59,363 bases of DNA from positions 1 to 59,363 of IMG/VR virus record IMGVR_UViG_3300028048_000083; one strand, written 5' to 3'. The notes below the pieces were generated by a model that saw only the letters and a list, made by a program, of their open reading frames with translations, did not search any database and was not told where the DNA came from. This document shows, piece after piece, positions 10,918 through 53,462 of the stretch. The position numbers and the translations under genes were made by a program. This DNA is from a virus (taxonomy: Duplodnaviria > Heunggongvirae > Uroviricota > Caudoviricetes). Each line of letters opens with the position of its first letter. Within the stretch, counting starts at the first letter, position 1.

Positions 10918-11234
10918 TGGGTTATAATAATAGTACAGGGCATTGTGATGAAGTCTGTAGTAATTGTTTTTATACACAATGCGTAGAACATCCAGAACAC
11001 AATAAGTCAAATGGACATGAACTGAAAACTGATGTTGTTTGTAAAGTATGCGGTGGGGTGTTTGACCAAGACGAGCCGCGTCAGACAATATGTTTGTCCG
11101 AATGCCAAGCAATATGGGACATACAACAAGAAGATAGAATATCGGCACTCACTTGGATTAAACGTAGAGGCTACAAAAACAAAACAGAGTTTATCAAAGA
11201 ATGGGGTGAAGAAACCTGGAATGCAATACAGTAA
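10917..11234 (+). CDS. hypothetical Zn-finger protein
   Basis: Several CxxC pairs; GTG start overlaps upstream stop. Confidence 0.65.
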   Translation: MGYNNSTGHCDEVCSNCFYTQCVEHPEHNKSNGHELKTDVVCKVCGGVFDQDEPRQTICLSECQAIWDIQQEDRISALTWIKRRGYKNKTEFIKEWGEETWNAIQ

Positions 11235-11294
11235 TCATGTAATAAATAAATTAAGGCACTTTTAGAAAACTATACAATAAACTTCAAACAATCT

Positions 11295-12197
11295 ATGCAA
11301 AAAAAGAGACATAAACTTGATTATCGTTTAATGAACATCAATAACCTGAAAAAAAACAGGTTTGTTGACAACGATGACGAAAATTTGCTCAGGTATTTTC
11401 ATGACATGCACAACTACAAGCTATTGTCACAGGATGAGGAACAGGAAATTATCAGATGCATTAAAAACGGCGACAAGAATTCAGATGACCTTAAATCGAG
11501 ACTAATCGGCAGTCATCAACCGTTTGTCGTTACATTTGCCAAACGGCATTGCCCGCGGGAAAGCGGACAGTTGCTTGATTTGATACAGGAAGGCAACTAC
11601 GGTATGCTTATGGCGTTGGAGAATTTTGACATAACCGCCAACGTGAAGTTTATCACATATGCCAACGCCTGGATTGTCAAGTATATGTACAAGTTTTTGG
11701 AAAACAATGAACTTATACAGAAAAACAACAGGTCCAAAACTTTCGGTGTAGATATTAGGGTTCGTGAAAAGTTCATCAAGGATTATGGGTATGAGCCGTC
11801 TTCCGATGAAATGTGGGAAATATTCAACGAAATGGGTATCAGTATCAAATACAAGGAAGACCTTGACAAGGTAACCATAATGTCGTTGAACAACCCCCCA
11901 GTTGTGAAACAGGAAGGTGTTGATGAAGATGATGACCTGGTTGTTGAATTTGGTGAGGATAACACATTAAATGAGGATATTGACAGGCAGTTGGATGCTA
12001 TCAAAATACGCAGACTGTTGGATAAGCTGACTGATGTTGAATCTTGTGTAATAAAGAAGAAATACGGGATTGACGACGGGATTGAGGAAGATGTTTCAAC
12101 TATTGCATATGAATTGGGCACAAGTGTGTACAAGATTAACCAGATTATAAGCAGCACAATTTCCAAACTAAAACGTTACGGGTTTTTGTTTGAATGA
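11295..12197 (+). CDS. sigma70-family RNA polymerase sigma factor
   Basis: LLRYFHDM...LLSQDEEQE (region 1.2), DLIQEGNYGML..A..NFD...FITYANAWI (region 2), KYGI...IAYELG (region 4). Confidence 0.92.
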   Translation: MQKKRHKLDYRLMNINNLKKNRFVDNDDENLLRYFHDMHNYKLLSQDEEQEIIRCIKNGDKNSDDLKSRLIGSHQPFVVTFAKRHCPRESGQLLDLIQEGNYGMLMALENFDITANVKFITYANAWIVKYMYKFLENNELIQKNNRSKTFGVDIRVREKFIKDYGYEPSSDEMWEIFNEMGISIKYKEDLDKVTIMSLNNPPVVKQEGVDEDDDLVVEFGEDNTLNEDIDRQLDAIKIRRLLDKLTDVESCVIKKKYGIDDGIEEDVSTIAYELGTSVYKINQIISSTISKLKRYGFLFE

Positions 12198-40941: not shown

Positions 40942-41012
40942 CCCAAAGGCTGTACTGTTAAGCGATTTAGGTGCCAAAGACAATAAGTGTACTGAAACGG
41001 AGCAAAACAGGG

Positions 41013-41235
41013 TTGTAAACAGTTCGTCTAAAGTCTAAGAAATAATATGAACGCCGCAATAAATATCCTCAAAGAGGGGGAAAGAATAATAGGGTCCCGT
41101 AGACCCGAATTCACGCTTGTGGAGAACCCAACCGTGGACGACCGTCAGGCAGAGCCTGACCTAAGAAGCGGTGGTTCGTTGAAACAAGAAGCGGAAACTT
41201 GGGAATCATAAGATTTCATAGGTTTTTGTGTACGG
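41013..41235 (+). mobile_element. minimal non-autonomous IS607-like element retaining the tnpB 3' end / omegaRNA scaffold
   Basis: 41047-41211 encodes NAAINILKEGERIIGSRRPEFTLVENPTVDDR...LRSGGSLKQE, a typical TnpB C-terminal tail. GG at both inferred junctions. Confidence 0.7.
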
Positions 41236-41359
41236 TTTGTCATGTATTGACCATATAAATCATGACCCTATCATCGGTGGAAACGGTGGTCAAAACCAAG
41301 ATGGAGTACTACATCAGCAAGTGAGGGTTTCGAGTTAACGTTAGTAGCTTGCAAATTTT

Positions 41360-44860: not shown

Positions 44861-45125
44861 AGTGACGGTTGTTGATAGTCATTCGAATGTATGTAAGACT
44901 TCGGTTCGAATCCGAACAGGTCCACGATGTTACCGATATTAAAAAGGGGCATGAAGGTCGCGGTCACCTTAAGACCGTATTTGGGCTTGACTTGGTTTTG
45001 ATTGCATATTAGTAGGGTGGAAGTAGACTGTTACTGAAGTTGTTTAAACGGCAACACAAACTATTCTTATCGCATGGCTGCCTAAGTTGGGCACCCACAG
45101 CGGGGCTGGCAACGAGCCAAATCGT
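44861..45125 (+). ncRNA. ssrA: circularly permuted (two-piece) tmRNA
   Basis: Acceptor piece 44861-44924 (T arm + CAGGTCC-A) precedes coding piece from 44983 (GGGCTTG...GGTTTTGA). G3.U70 present. Tag GNTNYSYRMAA* at 45050-45085. Confidence 0.88.
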
Positions 45126-46085: not shown

Positions 46086-46931
46086 ATGAATAGGATTGAT
46101 ATTAGCACGGAAGAAAAAAAACAAGAAGTTTATGATTTATTCAAAAATTTCAAGAATAAGTCACAAATACATGTGTATTATGGAATAAGTGACAATTCGC
46201 AAGGTTGTCAGTATATAAAAGAGGTTGCTGATGAGATTGGTTTTGATTTAAGTTCATATAAAAAGAAAGAAACAAGATATTGTTTGGAGTGTGGTGCTGA
46301 GTTAAAAAAAGGCCAAACCAAGTTTTGTTGCAAATCATGTGCGGTTGCTTATAATAATAGACAGCGTGATAAATCGGTATATGAAAAAGTTGCATCAAAA
46401 TTAAGGAAAAACCAAAAACATAATAAGAAAGAGGATAAATATTGTGTTGTTTGTGGTAAACCGTTAATTGGTAGACAACACAAATTTTGTTCTAAAAGCT
46501 GTAGAAATAAATATTATTATTCAAACAATGGATATGAAGTAGTATGTGTTGAATGCGGTAAAATATTTAAAGCCACTGATTCTGAAAGAAGGTTTTGTTC
46601 AAATTCGTGTTGTACGAAGTATAAACAGGAAAAACTTATAGAGGAATGGTTGAAAGGAAATTTAGAAATAAACGGAAACTCTGGATTATGTGATAGTATA
46701 AGAAAATTCCTTTTTGATAAAACAAAATATAAATGTCAAAAGTGTGGTTTTGAAGGATATAATGAAGTAACTGGTAATACAATATTGCAAATTCATCATA
46801 AAGATGGTGATTGTAATAATAACACACCAGAAAATTTAGAAGTTTTATGTCCAAATTGTCATGCTATGACTGAAAACTATATGGGATTAAATCGTGGAAA
46901 GTCAACAAGAATTAAAAGATATTATAAATAG
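46086..46931 (+). CDS. HNH endonuclease with IDISTEEK module and Zn-finger repeats
   Basis: LQIHHKDGD..NN...NLEVLCPNCHA. Confidence 0.9.
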   Translation: MNRIDISTEEKKQEVYDLFKNFKNKSQIHVYYGISDNSQGCQYIKEVADEIGFDLSSYKKKETRYCLECGAELKKGQTKFCCKSCAVAYNNRQRDKSVYEKVASKLRKNQKHNKKEDKYCVVCGKPLIGRQHKFCSKSCRNKYYYSNNGYEVVCVECGKIFKATDSERRFCSNSCCTKYKQEKLIEEWLKGNLEINGNSGLCDSIRKFLFDKTKYKCQKCGFEGYNEVTGNTILQIHHKDGDCNNNTPENLEVLCPNCHAMTENYMGLNRGKSTRIKRYYK

Positions 46932-47017
46932 AGGGTTACCCAAGTTGGTGAAGGGGACAGACTGCTAATTTGTTAGGACGCTTCGGTGTCTCGTGGGTTC
47001 GAATCCCACCCCCTCCG
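46930..47017 (+). tRNA. tRNA-Ser(GCT)
   Basis: CTGCTAA loop; 5' end overlaps the HNH stop codon; A1.C72 mismatch. Confidence 0.85.
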
Positions 47018-47112
47018 CAATGGGGTCGTCTTCCATGTTATCCGACCACAAAATATAAATAAGATGCTTGGTGACATTGGTACCGTTCGAATAAGGTGAA
47101 TGGTACAACTGT

Positions 47113-47249
47113 AGGAGTGTAGTTTAACGGTAGAATGACGGTCTCCGTACAGGGTGGCTCCTGAGAGAGGCTTAAATCAACGAATATTGTTTAGAGATAG
47201 ACAATATTTGACAAAACCGTAGATGTTGGTTCGATTCCAGCCACTCCTG
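47113..47249 (+). tRNA. tRNA-Trp(CCA) with 66-nt insertion in the anticodon
   Basis: ACGGT-CTCC[insert 47147-47212]AAA-ACCGT; G73. Confidence 0.82.
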
Positions 47250-47386
47250 CAAAATGCTAGCAAACGTTGCATAAGGATAAGGTTTCAAGCCCCACTGAAT
47301 CCGTTCAAGTCGGATTGAAATTAACTTGGAGTTGTTTCCAGGGACTGCAACGAGTCTGTATAGTGGGGATAGAGGCAGACAAATAT

Positions 47387-47509
47387 TGGGAAGTCGTCTA
47401 GTGGTAGGACGCGGATAAATGGTGACTTTTGGTTATGAAAGTCGGACAGCAATTGATTCTATACATGCTTTGGGTGCCCGTTACGCTGGTTCGAATCCAG
47501 CCTTCCCAG
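47387..47509 (+). tRNA. tRNA-Pro(TGG) with 52-nt insertion at 29/30
   Basis: CGG[47415-47466]GC-TTTGGGT-GCCCG; removal gives a perfect 5-bp stem. Confidence 0.85.
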
Positions 47510-47710
47510 CAAAAAATGTTATTTTGCAGAGTTGCATAACTGCATAGTTGGCATTAAAATGTACATGAAACACGATGAGAACGCGGGGTGGGTTCCACAC
47601 CAATAAAAAGGGTCTTGTTGCCGTGGTGATAATAAGCAAGAGTTGAGGCTTGTGGAGAACGGAATACATAGTTTATATATTAAAACGGTACATTGTAACA
47701 TTTTTTTAAC

Positions 47711-47915
47711 GGTCCCTTAGCTCAGTTGGTTAGAGCGGCTGACTCGTGAAGGTCGTATAATGGTAGTACGACATCACAGCTAAGATTGTGAAGTAGGTGT
47801 GAGTTCGATTCTCACTCTTTGCACTAATTTTTTATGATTTGTTTCATAATTTTGAGGTATCATAAAGAAATAAACCATAATCAGCGGGTCGGGGGTTCAA
47901 GTCCCTCAGGGACCA
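47711..47915 (+). tRNA. tRNA(CAT) (Met or Ile2) with 131-nt anticodon insertion
   Basis: GCTGA-CTC[47746-47876]ATAA-TCAGC; GGTCCCT/AGGGACC acceptor. Confidence 0.82.
47746..47823 (+). tRNA. nested tRNA-like gene (anticodon AAG?) inside tRNA(CAT)
   Basis: GTGAAGG/TCTTTGC acceptor, GTAT/GTAC D stem, TCACA/TGTGA arm, GTGAG-TTCGATT-CTCAC. Confidence 0.7.
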
Positions 47916-47921
47916 CTTTCT

Positions 47922-48027
47922 GATTCCTTAGCTCAGTGGTTAGAGCGTCGCACGTAAAGGTTAACATGACAGAAGCGTGCGGTAATAGTCGGTTTTAGAG
48001 ACGCTGGTTCGAATCCAGCAGGAATCA
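47922..48027 (+). tRNA. tRNA-like gene with enlarged anticodon loop and variable region, anticodon unassigned
   Basis: Perfect acceptor, D and T arms; TCGCACG/CGTGCGG stem. Confidence 0.6.
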
Positions 48028-48145
48028 CCCAGTTTAATAACGTTCGATTGCTGGAGCTTCGCCTATGGAAGTTTGTGAGCATAGGTAGTTACACACTTAT
48101 AGGTAAAGTGGCGTTGGGTGTCCCCAAACGATATGTGGGGAATGT

Positions 48146-48284
48146 ATCCGTTTAGTTCAGTCAGGTTAGAACAGGCAAGCCCAAGATACATGCCGTAAAA
48201 CGAGAGCAACCAGGAGTGAGTAAAAGCAGATTAAGGACGGCACCGTTGTCACTCTTTACCCAGGTTCGAATCCTGGAACGGGTA
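48146..48284 (+). tRNA. tRNA-like gene with 13-nt anticodon loop and ~70-nt variable arm
   Basis: ATCCGTT/AACGGGT; GTTC/GAAC D stem; CCAGG-TTCGAAT-CCTGG. Confidence 0.6.
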
Positions 48285-48455
48285 CTATTTTTTCATTAAT
48301 CCATTAATATTGTCTGTGCGCTGTTTCTGGCTTTCAGTGTAAATCTGCGCTCTGTGTACAGGTATAAGACCGTAACTTATGAAGCTCTGGGGGATTTATC
48401 CGAAAAACTTTGCAAAGCATCTTCATTCGTCGGAAAACAGGGATATTAATGAATT

Positions 48456-48475
48456 TGCCCTGGTAGCTCAGGGCA
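48456..48475 (+). pseudogene. collapsed tRNA stub (GCCCTGGTAGCTCAGGGCA)
   Basis: tRNA 5' end GCCCTGGTAGCTCAG fused to acceptor 3' strand; matches remnant at 49704. Confidence 0.6.
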
Positions 48476-48482
48476 TTTATTT

Positions 48483-48556
48483 GGGGTGATGGTGTAGTTG
48501 GTTGGTCACGCTGGTCTGAAAAACCAGAGGCGGTATTTTCGATAATCCTCGCCCCA
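48483..48556 (+). tRNA. tRNA-Phe(GAA)
   Basis: CTGGT-CTGAAAA-ACCAG; T arm degenerate. Confidence 0.7.
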
Positions 48557-48636
48557 CAAAAATTTTTGAAAATTTAAGTTCAAAACCACATTTTTCCGCA
48601 GAAGATACTATTTATATTATATAAGGCATTATTAAT

Positions 48637-49704
48637 ATGAATAAGATTGACATTAGTACAGAAGAAAAGAAACAAGAGGTTTACAATTTATTTGCCTCAT
48701 TTAAAAAGAAGGGTGATATTCACAAGTATTTTGGAATAAGTGACAATTCACAAGGATGTAAGCATATCAAGGAGGTTGCTGATGAAATTGGGTTTGACTT
48801 AAATTCATATAAAAAGAAATACTGTCTAGAATGTGGTAAAGAGATTACATCAAAATATGGTAATAAATTTTGTTCATGTTCTTGTTCCATTTCACATCGT
48901 AATAAAAATAGTAAACATAGTGAAATAACTAAGAAGAAAATTAGCGAATCATTAAAAAAATTAAAGATAAACAAACCAACAATAAAAAAAGTGTGTAGAT
49001 GCTGTGGTCAAGAGGTGTGTGAGCATAATGAAATTTGTAAACATAGTCATGCTCTTTTTGAAAATCTAACCTATTTTGGATTTAATATTAATACGTATGG
49101 GACAAAAGATGTATATAATGAATATTATAAAACAAAAGCATTATTAGAAGAAGAATATTATAATAATGGATTAAATTCAAGGGAACTTAAAGAAAAGTAT
49201 GATTATCCCAAAACTTTTGAAAATATTACTCATATTTTAAAACATTTGGGAATAAAGGTAAGAAATGAAAGAGAAAGTCAAATAAACTTGATTATACGAA
49301 ATAAAGTTACGCCCCAAAATGCATTTAATACTTATCCATTTAAACACGGGTGGCATATAACATGGGATAACAATAAGATTTATTATAGAAGCTCATATGA
49401 ATTAGAATATGCTGAAGAATTAGATAAACAAAAAATTCATTATGAGGTAGAAAGTCTTAGAATATTATATTATGATACAGTATTACAGAGTGAAAGAGTG
49501 GCGATACCTGATTTTTATCTCCCCAAATCTAATGAAATTATTGAAGTTAAATCCAGGGTTACTTTTTTAAAACAAAACGTAGTAGATAAGTTTAAAAAAT
49601 ATATTGAATTAGGTTATACACCAAAATTATTATATGAGAATAAATTATATAAGTTAGAAGATATTGAAAGTTTAGAAGAATTTAAATATGTTTTGAACAC
49701 ATAG
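48637..49704 (+). CDS. PD-(D/E)XK (TnsA-like) endonuclease with IDISTEEK module
   Basis: YRSSYELEYA...PDFYLP...IIEVKS. Confidence 0.85.
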   Translation: MNKIDISTEEKKQEVYNLFASFKKKGDIHKYFGISDNSQGCKHIKEVADEIGFDLNSYKKKYCLECGKEITSKYGNKFCSCSCSISHRNKNSKHSEITKKKISESLKKLKINKPTIKKVCRCCGQEVCEHNEICKHSHALFENLTYFGFNINTYGTKDVYNEYYKTKALLEEEYYNNGLNSRELKEKYDYPKTFENITHILKHLGIKVRNERESQINLIIRNKVTPQNAFNTYPFKHGWHITWDNNKIYYRSSYELEYAEELDKQKIHYEVESLRILYYDTVLQSERVAIPDFYLPKSNEIIEVKSRVTFLKQNVVDKFKKYIELGYTPKLLYENKLYKLEDIESLEEFKYVLNT

Positions 49705-49763
49705 CCCTGTCTGGTGATTGGGGCAAGAGCCCCGCGTCGGTGGTTCAATTCCATCCCAGGGCA
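49704..49763 (+). pseudogene. decayed tRNA-Phe-like remnant
   Basis: GCCCTG/CAGGGC acceptor, GGGGC-AAGA-GCCCC (4-nt loop), intact T arm, scrambled D arm. Confidence 0.65.
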
Positions 49764-50063
49764 CGACCGACTTGGCAAAGCGAATTAATTCGCAACTCGT
49801 GATAGGCGGTAGTTGGGAAGACCACCTTGCGAGTATAAAGCAGAACTTCGCGCGTCTGCTGGCTGTTTCCAATAGGAAATGGTGACAACAAGACCCCGCC
49901 TGGTATGCACCTTCACAGAGCGTTAAATATCAGTAAGGCAGTTTGTTTCAGACAATACGGTGAGTCTGGAACAAGAGGTTATGGCATTAATCGCCTCGTT
50001 AATCAATTGAGATGACCACAATCGGTTGGAGTATAACCGTAACCGTTAAAATATACTCTATTT

Positions 50064-50191
50064 GGACAGGTAGCTCAGTTGGTTTAGAGCGACGTAATGA
50101 ATGACTTTTGGCGATTGAAAGTCGTACAGCAATTAATAAAATTCTATGGTCACCAACCCGTAGGTCGGAGGTTCGAATCCTTCCCTGCCCT
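50064..50191 (+). tRNA. tRNA-Gly(ACC) with 53-nt insertion at 29/30
   Basis: ACG[50095-50147]GG-TCACCAA-CCCGT; U73; atypical C33. Confidence 0.75.
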
Positions 50192-50347
50192 CGAAGCTTT
50201 AGCATAAAAACCGTCAAGGAAATCAAACCATATCCTGACACTGGGTAGTGACCATATACAGTGCGGCATGGGTAAAGGTGAGGAACTTGTAAAAATTTGC
50301 GCCTCCAGGGGGAGGAGATGCGGGTTGGTGAACCGACGGCTTTAACA

Positions 50348-50422
50348 CCTGTGGTAGCTCAGTTGGTTTAGAGCAATCGCCTGATACGCGATAGGTCGGT
50401 AGTTCGAGTCTACCCCACAGGA
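50348..50422 (+). tRNA. tRNA-Ile(GAT)
   Basis: Canonical cloverleaf. Confidence 0.93.
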
Positions 50423-50507
50423 CTGATTTTTTATAATAAATTAAAACAGTTTTTATGAACTTGAAATTTAAATGTGGTTTTATGTAATATACAAATTACA
50501 TAAAAAC

Positions 50508-53166: not shown

Positions 53167-53239
53167 GCGCCCGTGGCTGAGTGACTTAGGCGACCGTCTC
53201 TAAAACGGTACTACACGGGTTTGAATCCTGTCGGGCGCA
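53167..53239 (+). tRNA. amber suppressor tRNA (CTA)
   Basis: ACCGT-CTCTAAA-ACGGT; complete cloverleaf; T loop TTTGAAT. Confidence 0.9.
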
Positions 53240-53462
53240 CAAAGAGGTTGGAGGTTAACATTTACGCCATACCAGCTGTCAGTGCCGTTTGAGCCTAGAG
53301 CAGCGAATTTTTAGGCGAAAATGCAAATGACTTTTGATTAAGCGGTGACGAGCCAAACTGGTCATTAGCCAGATTGCCTCTGGCAAAAGCCAGATGTCCG
53401 TGAAAGTCGGAGGAGAGTCTTCCAGTGTATCGTGTTCTACTCCTTAAACAAGTAACAAGTAC

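Follow-up and report, generated by a model that had tools for sequence, protein, structure and literature searches.

A mobile insert with a tRNA-like structure and a clamp helix at the C34|A35 junction of a phage tRNA-Ile2-type gene

A split tRNA gene in a phage tRNA array

The DNA analysed here (the window, 59,363 nt) comes from a large gut/rumen phage and lies on a 123-kb contig that is estimated to represent 32% of the phage genome. An 18-kb tRNA array occupies its plus strand from 39.3 to 57.3 kb, with about 28 matches to tRNA models, a permuted tmRNA, a suppressor tRNA (CTA) and HNH endonuclease genes scattered among them; several of the tRNA matches hold inserts of 25-70 nt. Within this array a tRNA(CAU) gene is split in its anticodon by an insert that contains a tRNA-like structure (TLS), a hairpin and the end of a former HNH homing-endonuclease gene (Table 1).

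Table 1. Features of the split tRNA gene, and two further genes of the same array (window coordinates).
Feature	Position	Strand	Basis
5′ exon, outer tRNA-Ile2-type tRNA(CAU), positions 1-34, last base C34	47711..47745	+	Cloverleaf, L003, E. coli match
TLS	47746..47823	+	RF00005, 36.8 bits; compensatory changes in 8 alleles
TLS acceptor stem	47746-52/47816-22
TLS D arm	47755-69
TLS long non-decoding arm	47771-94
TLS T arm	47799-815
TLS discriminator A	47823
Linker CUAA, 4 nt, TLS discriminator to clamp	47824..47827	+	3-5 nt in 10/10 alleles
Clamp 5′ strand (UUUUUUAUGAU)	47828..47838	+	RNAduplex, cross-allele and sliding-window controls; minimum-energy fold
Clamp loop: rest of pre-ORF spacer (to 47853) and first bases of retained ORF tail	47839..47858	+	Alignment with L012 and L024
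HNH homing-endonuclease ORF relic: last 6 codons (..GIIKK) and stop TAA (47871-47873)	47854..47873	+	20/20 nt equal to end of L012 ORF
Clamp 3′ strand (AUCAUAAAGAA), within last codons of former HNH gene	47859..47869	+	Duplex tests, allele alignment
Linker AUAAACC, 7 nt, single-stranded, clamp to 3′ junction	47870..47876	+	6-8 nt in 10/10 alleles
3′ exon, outer tRNA, positions 35-73 (A35 to discriminator A)	47877..47915	+	Cloverleaf, L003
Permuted tmRNA, same array	44867-45085		RF04321, 63.7 bits
tRNA with anticodon CTA (amber suppressor), same array	53167-53240

Neither a megablast search with 46900-50500 nor a blastn search with the insert yielded anything meaningful from 50,697 phage records, and exact-pattern scans of IMG/VR with words from the TLS or the junctions returned zero or spurious matches only. 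An exact-word scan for the 3′ half of the outer tRNA did find an uninterrupted gene, L003, on another phage contig. A metagenome scan found the alleles L011 and L010, and the ORF fragment of L011 was then used as a query. The full-length protein, P0001 (182 aa, PF01844 HNH), has at least 246 relatives, the contigs of which gave nine more interrupted tRNA(CAU) genes.

Insertion between C34 and A35 of a tRNA-Ile2-type gene

The original prediction, made from the letters of the window, was that of a tRNA(CAT) gene split in the anticodon by a 131-nt insert. Joining the two exons indeed yields a canonical cloverleaf in which all stem pairs are standard. An empty allele, which the prediction had proposed to look for in related phages, is provided by L003: this gene equals the joined exons except for one D-loop base (T at 47727 in the window), and hence establishes both the anticodon CAT and the insert length of 131 nt. 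The prediction had further assumed that C34 stays on the 5′ exon and that the insert starts at 47746. In the window alone the junction is ambiguous by 1 nt, with a C on both sides. However, A35 is preceded by T or A instead of C in four of the ten sibling alleles (L018, L025, L027 and L022), so that C34 belongs to the 5′ exon and the insert spans 47746-47876, as had been assumed.

ARAGORN deals poorly with such genes. By default it called neither the split gene of the window nor its inner cloverleaf. With introns allowed it did report a 131-nt intron, but placed it at 37/38 and called the gene Thr(CGT), a reading that is ruled out by the empty allele. Run in this way it misread most of the split genes, as Thr(CGT) in five of ten alleles and otherwise as Lys(CTT), Arg(CCG) or Leu(AAG).

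The closest E. coli genes to the outer tRNA are annotated as tRNA-Ile and carry CTCATAA (81-82% identity over the full length). The outer tRNA also has C4-G69 and C5-G68, which we take to be TilS determinants. Judged by its sequence, then, the outer gene is of the tRNA-Ile2 type (CAU, lysidine type), with a body nearer to tRNA-Ile2 than to tRNA-Met. AUA accounts for 153 of 474 Ile codons (32%) in 17 long ORFs of the window, so the phage has a use for a tRNA of this type.

The insertion site is C34|A35 in all ten interrupted alleles, among which there are eight different exon sequences. The exons of every allele fold as canonical cloverleaves, and their differences are compensatory in the acceptor, anticodon and T stems; half of the alleles have a single non-standard pair, at 27:43 (L018, L022) or 12:23 (L025-27). 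Decayed exons were found in none of the ten.

The insert begins with a tRNA mimic

A second cloverleaf had been proposed to start on the first nucleotide of the insert. Our results confirm its presence: a 78-nt element at this place scores 36.8 bits with RF00005, above the cut-off of 29 (the E-value is 2.4e-5 when 3.6 kb are searched and 3.9e-4 for the window as a whole), and sibling TLSs score 35.7, 33.8 and 28.1 bits. The element has a 7-bp acceptor stem with three G.U pairs, G1-C72, a 4-bp D stem, GG in the D loop and the T loop TTCGATT, and its acceptor and T stems form a 12-bp stack. The 'anticodon' arm was misjudged in the original prediction, which gave it a 7-nt loop with CT-AAG-AT; the loop is in fact 8 nt long (GCUAAGAU) and stands on an 8-bp stem with an A.A mismatch.

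Eight of the interrupted alleles (class A) carry a TLS of this kind, and fall into three diverged sequence subfamilies (GUGAAGG.., CGUUUGG.. and GUGGAGG..). In all eight, position +1 of the TLS directly follows C34, and the acceptor, D and T stems stay paired through compensatory change; the pair 50:64, for instance, is U-A, U.G or C-G depending on the subfamily. The top half is constant across the class (12-bp acceptor/T stack, GG in the D loop, T loop), the T loop being UCCGAUU in subfamilies A2 and A3. The fourth arm, on the other hand, varies freely, with 4-8 bp, loops of 3, 5, 6, 8 or 11 nt and no anticodon shared among alleles. A functional decoder would have a 5-bp anticodon stem, a 7-nt loop and a conserved anticodon, a combination that the TLS lacks. 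Hence the element is not the second tRNA that it had been taken for; going by these alleles it is a conserved, non-decoding tRNA mimic under structural selection. Its D arm is identical to that of the tRNA-Gly(UCC) genes of related arrays, which suggests that it originated as a tRNA-Gly gene.

The two other alleles, L016 and L022 (class B), have the insertion site, the clamp and the endonuclease gene in common with class A. In them the first 7 nt of the insert can pair with the anticodon-stem strand of the 5′ exon; a hairpin follows, and an acceptor/T-arm minihelix of 7-8 bp, with a G-C to A-U compensatory change between both alleles, begins 28-30 nt inside the insert. A cloverleaf drawn from the first intron base of class B pairs poorly, and the internal minihelix fits better.

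A covarying clamp encloses the endonuclease gene

The AT-rich hairpin that had been noticed after the inner cloverleaf is real, and its 11 bp are present in the minimum-energy fold. Comparison of alleles gives it a wider meaning. In each of them, pairing is found between a segment that begins 3-5 nt downstream of the TLS discriminator and the final ~30 nt of the intron, where the ORF ends. The 5′ strand overlaps the left half of a conserved TTATGA..TCATAA palindrome, and the linker on the 3′ side is always 2-3 nt longer than the opposite one (10 alleles). Cognate duplexes average -12.2 kcal/mol, against -6.3 ± 2.1 for duplexes between subfamilies, and in six of nine gene-carrying alleles the last 30 nt of the intron are the best partner of the post-TLS segment within the entire intron (0 of >500 windows equal). 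Shuffling gives z-scores of -1.3 to -6.5 across alleles; the clamp of subfamily A1, which includes that of the window, is made of A and U only and stands weakly above background (z -1.3 to -2.5). On these comparisons the hairpin is a covarying clamp helix that, in gene-bearing alleles, holds the endonuclease gene in its loop. It was absent from the free-standing TLS+HNH cassette L013, from the L035-type cassettes and from L037 (see below).

Two other readings of the hairpin were considered and rejected. An accidental deletion scar, made of an operator half-site and the ORF tail, is ruled out by the cognate, cross-allele and sliding-window duplex tests. A role as stabiliser of the endonuclease mRNA is ruled out by the free-standing and differently inserted cassettes, which do without the clamp.

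The insert descends from a mobile element

The allele L011, 99.2% identical to the window, represents the parent of the window allele: it matches the window up to 47853 and then runs into an ORF. The homologous ORF of L012 encodes 182 aa with an HNH domain (PF01844). Alignment with L012 and L024 shows what the insert of the window retains: the TLS, then 30 nt from the start of the spacer and 20 nt from the end of the ORF. A deletion of ~556 nt within 47839..47858 has taken a promoter-like motif and the HNH gene. An ORF-less allele identical to that of the window was found in a second metagenome (L010). The original prediction, which had described a cloverleaf and a hairpin alone, thus missed both the relic of a homing endonuclease and the conserved clamp.

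In full-length copies the order is TLS, a linker of 3-5 nt, clamp 5′ strand, promoter-like motif, HNH gene, clamp 3′ strand, a linker of 6-8 nt and the 3′ exon. The gene encodes 181-187 aa and contains the clamp 3′ strand in its last codons; its stop codon varies in place, from ~3 nt before the 3′ junction to ~12 nt within the 3′ exon. A motif (G)TACTATTTAT precedes its start codon by 6-32 nt and is also found before other ORFs of the window. More generally, (G/T/C)ACTATTTAT stands 15-32 nt before start codons in the window (1651, 13434, 30922, 46055, 48606 and others), with 20 occurrences at ≤1 mismatch against 10.2 expected, and is a candidate phage promoter element. The endonuclease gene probably has its own promoter downstream of the TLS, in which case the TLS would not be needed in the endonuclease mRNA.

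The distribution of alleles is that of an intron mobilized by a homing endonuclease. The HNH ORF is present in L011, L012, L018 and L024 and absent from the window and L010, while L003 is empty; moreover, the intron is more conserved than its flanks. The TLSs of L011 and L012 are about 99% identical to that of the window, and in the case of L012 the flanks are only ~84% identical where the TLS agrees in 77 of 78 nt, a contrast that fits recent homing. Divergence of intron and exons is indeed uncoupled: the window and L012 differ by one nucleotide in the TLS and by many in the exons, whereas the window and L024 have 17 TLS differences and identical exons. We read the window insert as a copy, now devoid of its ORF, of a mobile and structured intervening sequence directed at C34|A35 of phage tRNA-Ile2(CAU) genes.

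Other insertions in tRNA genes

A different insertion was observed in the same tRNA(CAU) gene of another phage. In L004 (IMGVR_UViG_3300032030_000038, 10952-11485, minus strand of the locus), ~534 nt are inserted after U36; the 5′ exon has U as its last base and the insert has G, and RF00028 matches with 35.6 bits (cut-off 50, E 2e-7). By these features it is probably a group I intron, which would make the anticodon loop of tRNA(CAU) a hot spot for different mobile introns.

Within the window, a tRNA-Trp(CCA) gene (47113-47249) contains a 66-nt insert at 34|35 according to ARAGORN. It has no tRNA-like part; a 5′ GUACAGG..CCUG hairpin resembles the 5′ hairpins of Lak phage introns, and an 8-bp AT hairpin lies 3-4 nt before the junction.

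Related HNH cassettes of another make were seen in L035, L036, L039, L044, L041 and L013. Their tRNA-like element has no D arm and carries a long arm, with a 7-nt loop and the anticodon UAU. In L035, L036, L039 and L044 (the L035 type) the cassette sits at 29|30 of the tRNA(CAU) gene, and L041 looks similar. The anticodon-stem strands of the L044 exons cannot pair, and from their sequences the L035-type cassettes look non-spliceable. The UAU-loop element may be a replacement AUA decoder, delivered by the very element that breaks the resident one. In L037 and L038, an HNH gene with a TGA in frame comes after a normal tRNA-Ile(UAU) gene, and beyond it lies the 3′ half alone of a tRNA(CAU).

A possible route of excision

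The alleles show how the element is built, that it is mobile, that TLS and clamp covary and that the TLS abuts exactly on C34; beyond this we infer a series of enzymatic steps that would restore the tRNA. The array transcript would fold into the outer cloverleaf, with a rod of TLS and clamp sticking out of its anticodon loop. The RNase P of the host would take the TLS for a pre-tRNA and cut between C34 and G+1 (47745|47746), leaving the 5′ exon with a 3′-OH, and RNase Z would probably cleave after the TLS discriminator. The clamp would keep the 3′ junction next to the end of the TLS, where a second endonuclease would free A35; a candidate is an enzyme of the RNase E/G type, 5′-monophosphate-dependent, acting on the AU-rich linker. 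Finally, a phage RNA ligase would reseal the anticodon loop. We give a probability of about 0.5 to this main reading, in which the insert is a structured mobile intron cut at its 5′ end by RNase P and resealed by the ligase of the phage.

Recognition by RNase P depends on G1-C72, on the stacked acceptor and T stems, on a canonical T loop and on the GG of the D loop. The TLS has all of these, its stack being 12 bp long, and cleavage should occur at 47745|47746. The two folds had been suggested to be mutually exclusive products; this is not the case, for the outer and inner folds share no paired nucleotides and are compatible, but the nested-cloverleaf model, with standard pairs only, lies 9-16 kcal/mol above the computed minimum free energy. 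As for the ligase that the prediction had invoked, an RNA ligase gene (PF09414, 54.6 bits; contig 111960-112607, minus strand) is carried by the same contig. Neither RtcB (PF01139) nor EndA (PF01974) was found on the contig, which is 32% complete.

The central claim of the prediction, that RNase P cleavage at the inner 5′ end would cut the outer tRNA exactly at 34/35, stands in part. It agrees with the abutment of the TLS on C34 throughout class A. It does not extend to class B, where the minihelix lies 28-30 nt inside the insert and RNase P therefore cannot set the 5′ junction, nor does it account for the other end of the insert: a determinant for a precise cut before A35 was looked for, and only the A-rich end of the ORF lies upstream. 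RNase P, RNase Z and RNase III were each rejected for the 3′ cut, since none suits a position 4 nt ahead of the anticodon stem and 6-8 nt beyond the clamp. The insert without a TLS at 34|35 of tRNA-Trp hints at a TLS-independent route. A bulge-helix-bulge intron was also rejected, as inspection found the junction regions not to be complementary and PF01974 was not found on the contig (32% complete).

Alternative explanations

The excision model has to be weighed above all against a reading in which the tRNA is dead. Here, a 'tRNA + HNH' homing cassette would have destroyed the anticodon of tRNA-Ile2, the halves would never be joined, the host would decode AUA, and the copy in the window would be a decaying relic; the inner cloverleaf would be a degenerate, hitch-hiking ex-tRNA-Gly, retained as a punctuation mark for RNase P and RNase Z. 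We consider this reading doubtful but serious. It takes support from the missing determinant of the 3′ cut and from the habits of the HNH family, whose genes often lie just downstream of ordinary tRNAs (a tRNA ≤260 nt upstream in 20 of 80 IMG/VR loci of the P0001 family). Every HNH ORF of the array likewise comes after a tRNA, starting 18-131 nt beyond the tRNA gene (43447, 46086, 53846 and 55062). A free-standing TLS+HNH cassette is known (L013), and related cassettes are inserted at 29|30 between exons that cannot pair (L044) or adjoin the relic of a 3′ half only (L037). Uncoupled divergence of exons and intron is what active homing into intact genes produces, so recent homing alone may account for the intact exons; those of the window in particular say little, its deletion being recent, as the near-identity to L011 indicates. 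What a dead tRNA fails to explain is a clamp that covaries across subfamilies and occurs in 34|35 inserts only, together with the compensatory upkeep of a non-decoding TLS upstream of the gene's own promoter and the lack of any decayed exon among ten interrupted alleles. Selection on the structure of TLS and clamp, specific to the 34|35 inserts, together with their apparent dispensability for expression of the endonuclease, fits an RNA meant for removal.

Other readings fare less well. The TLS itself could be the useful product, with the outer halves serving to carry and release it, for instance as a decoy against host defences that target tRNAs or as the partner RNA of the phage's own Ro60-like system. 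Conservation of its top half would be accounted for, RNase P and RNase Z would free it cleanly, and the loop of subfamily A1 retains CACAGCUAAG, which resembles the ACAGCAA tag of other small RNAs in the array. This motif is missing from subfamilies A2 and A3, however. ACAGCWA has 20 matches in the window where 12.5 are expected, which is a mild enrichment only, and neither the clamp nor the fixed insertion site is accounted for. We regard the proposal as improbable. A small self-splicing ribozyme akin to group I introns is very improbable indeed, despite the probable group I intron after U36 of the same tRNA in L004: the insert has only 131 nt, both the 5′ exon and the intron end in C, and a permissive Rfam search found neither ribozymes nor introns in 46900-50500 at E-values up to 1. 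As little credit can be given to a genuine decoding tRNA, such as Leu(AAG) or a quadruplet reader, nested for co-expression. The Rfam score above the cut-off and the AAG in the loop speak for it; the 8-bp stem and 8-nt loop, the sibling arms without a shared anticodon and the UCCGAUU T loop of A2 and A3 speak against it.

Comparison with known systems

Group I introns with homing endonucleases occur in the anticodon loops of tRNAs, as in cyanobacterial and plastid tRNA-Leu(UAA) and in tRNA-fMet with I-Ssp6803I. The insert described here is, like them, mobile in an anticodon loop, with an endonuclease ORF looped out and alleles that have the ORF, lack it or are empty. Unlike them, it lacks a ribozyme core, has neither a U at the 5′ junction nor a terminal G and matches no intron model of Rfam, and a tRNA mimic takes the place of the core. 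The protein-spliced tRNA introns of archaea and eukaryotes are marked by a bulge-helix-bulge motif, an EndA/Sen endonuclease and the ligases RtcB or Trl1. Removal by proteins followed by ligation, as we propose for the insert, would be a feature in common, but no bulge-helix-bulge can be drawn at its junctions, and RNase P would leave 3′-OH/5′-P ends rather than a cyclic phosphate.

Signals of tRNA-like shape for RNase P and RNase Z are known from the tRNA punctuation of mitochondria and from MALAT1 mascRNA. There, as in our model, a non-decoding mimic within a longer RNA directs the cuts; those cuts separate RNAs, whereas the flanks of the insert would need to be rejoined. In T4, the break made by PrrC in an anticodon loop is repaired by Pnkp and Rnl1, and SegB is a free-standing homing endonuclease in the tRNA cluster. 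The parallels are a phage ligase that seals a break beside the wobble base and homing endonucleases that target tRNA gene regions. The differences are that T4 mends damage and removes no insert, and that SegB lies outside the tRNA.

The closest counterparts are the 'enigmatic' introns that Devoto et al. (2019, Nat Microbiol, PMC6784885, Fig. 4) described in the tRNAs of Lak megaphages. One of these, they wrote, 'itself may encode a tRNA', and a 2026 survey (PMC13037316) makes the remark again. These are also anticodon-loop inserts in tRNAs of a large phage, tRNA-like, near-identical across samples, present or absent depending on the allele (PMC6784885), too small for a ribozyme and built of one hairpin and one tRNA-like part. 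The window insert shares the general traits of the type (an anticodon-loop insert with a tRNA-like fold, conservation across samples and an empty allele) and differs in its order. A Lak intron consists of a short hairpin, a linker and a tRNA-like part that ends at the 3′ junction (PMC6784885, Table S6), with an RNase Z-type end; the insert of the window is the mirror image, its TLS starting at the 5′ junction with an RNase P-type end, followed by the hairpin and a 7-nt linker. In addition, the hairpin of the window family is a clamp around an HNH gene in the siblings, and an HNH gene is not reported for Lak introns. The element is thus a new architecture of a published kind: TLS first, then the clamp, with a homing endonuclease in the clamp loop. 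Our literature search found no paper proposing a mechanism for such introns.

We tentatively suggest, at somewhat less than even odds, that bacterial viruses have in these inserts a third kind of mobile intron, one that needs neither self-splicing nor a dedicated splicing endonuclease and uses a TLS and a clamp as its splice signal. With similar reserve, host RNase P, together with RNase Z or an RNase E/G-type enzyme, would excise them and the phage RNA ligase would join the exons, the endonuclease gene being housed in the clamp loop; the form with a 5′ TLS and the mirrored Lak form would then be alternative realizations of a single principle. Removal by the ordinary enzymes of tRNA trimming is what the design suggests.

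To our knowledge, self-splicing is the only route accepted so far for the removal of tRNA introns in bacteria and their viruses. If the excision model is true, a tRNA-mimic intron cut by RNase P and RNase Z and sealed by a ligase would be a new splicing route, phage RNA ligases would have a new role, and the 'enigmatic' introns of megaphages would be accounted for. The locus offers a compact substrate of 205 nt, with natural variants that have the endonuclease gene, lack the gene or lack the insert. And if other annotation runs misread such genes as ARAGORN does, the AUA-decoding capacity of phages is under-counted.

Further variable elements of the array

Additional variation was observed around the split gene. 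The segment 45931-46987 of the window, with an HNH ORF (46086-46931) between two tRNA-Ser genes, is missing from L011, so the content in homing endonucleases differs between near-identical phages. Likewise, 48472-49724 is missing from L010, a contig otherwise 99.4% identical; it holds a match to a tRNA model (48483-48556) and a 355-aa ORF with no Pfam match, and looks like another mobile 'tRNA + ORF' unit. Two further tRNA-model matches have odd inserts, at 47922-48027 (50.3 bits; a 25-nt insert containing GACAGAAG, and a long extra arm) and at 48146-48284 (35.6 bits). Lastly, an element of ~220 nt is repeated within the genome, at 41008-41236 of the window and at genome position 123201-123353, and a copy with 80-82% identity adjoins the interrupted tRNA of an unrelated contig (L024, 998-1218).
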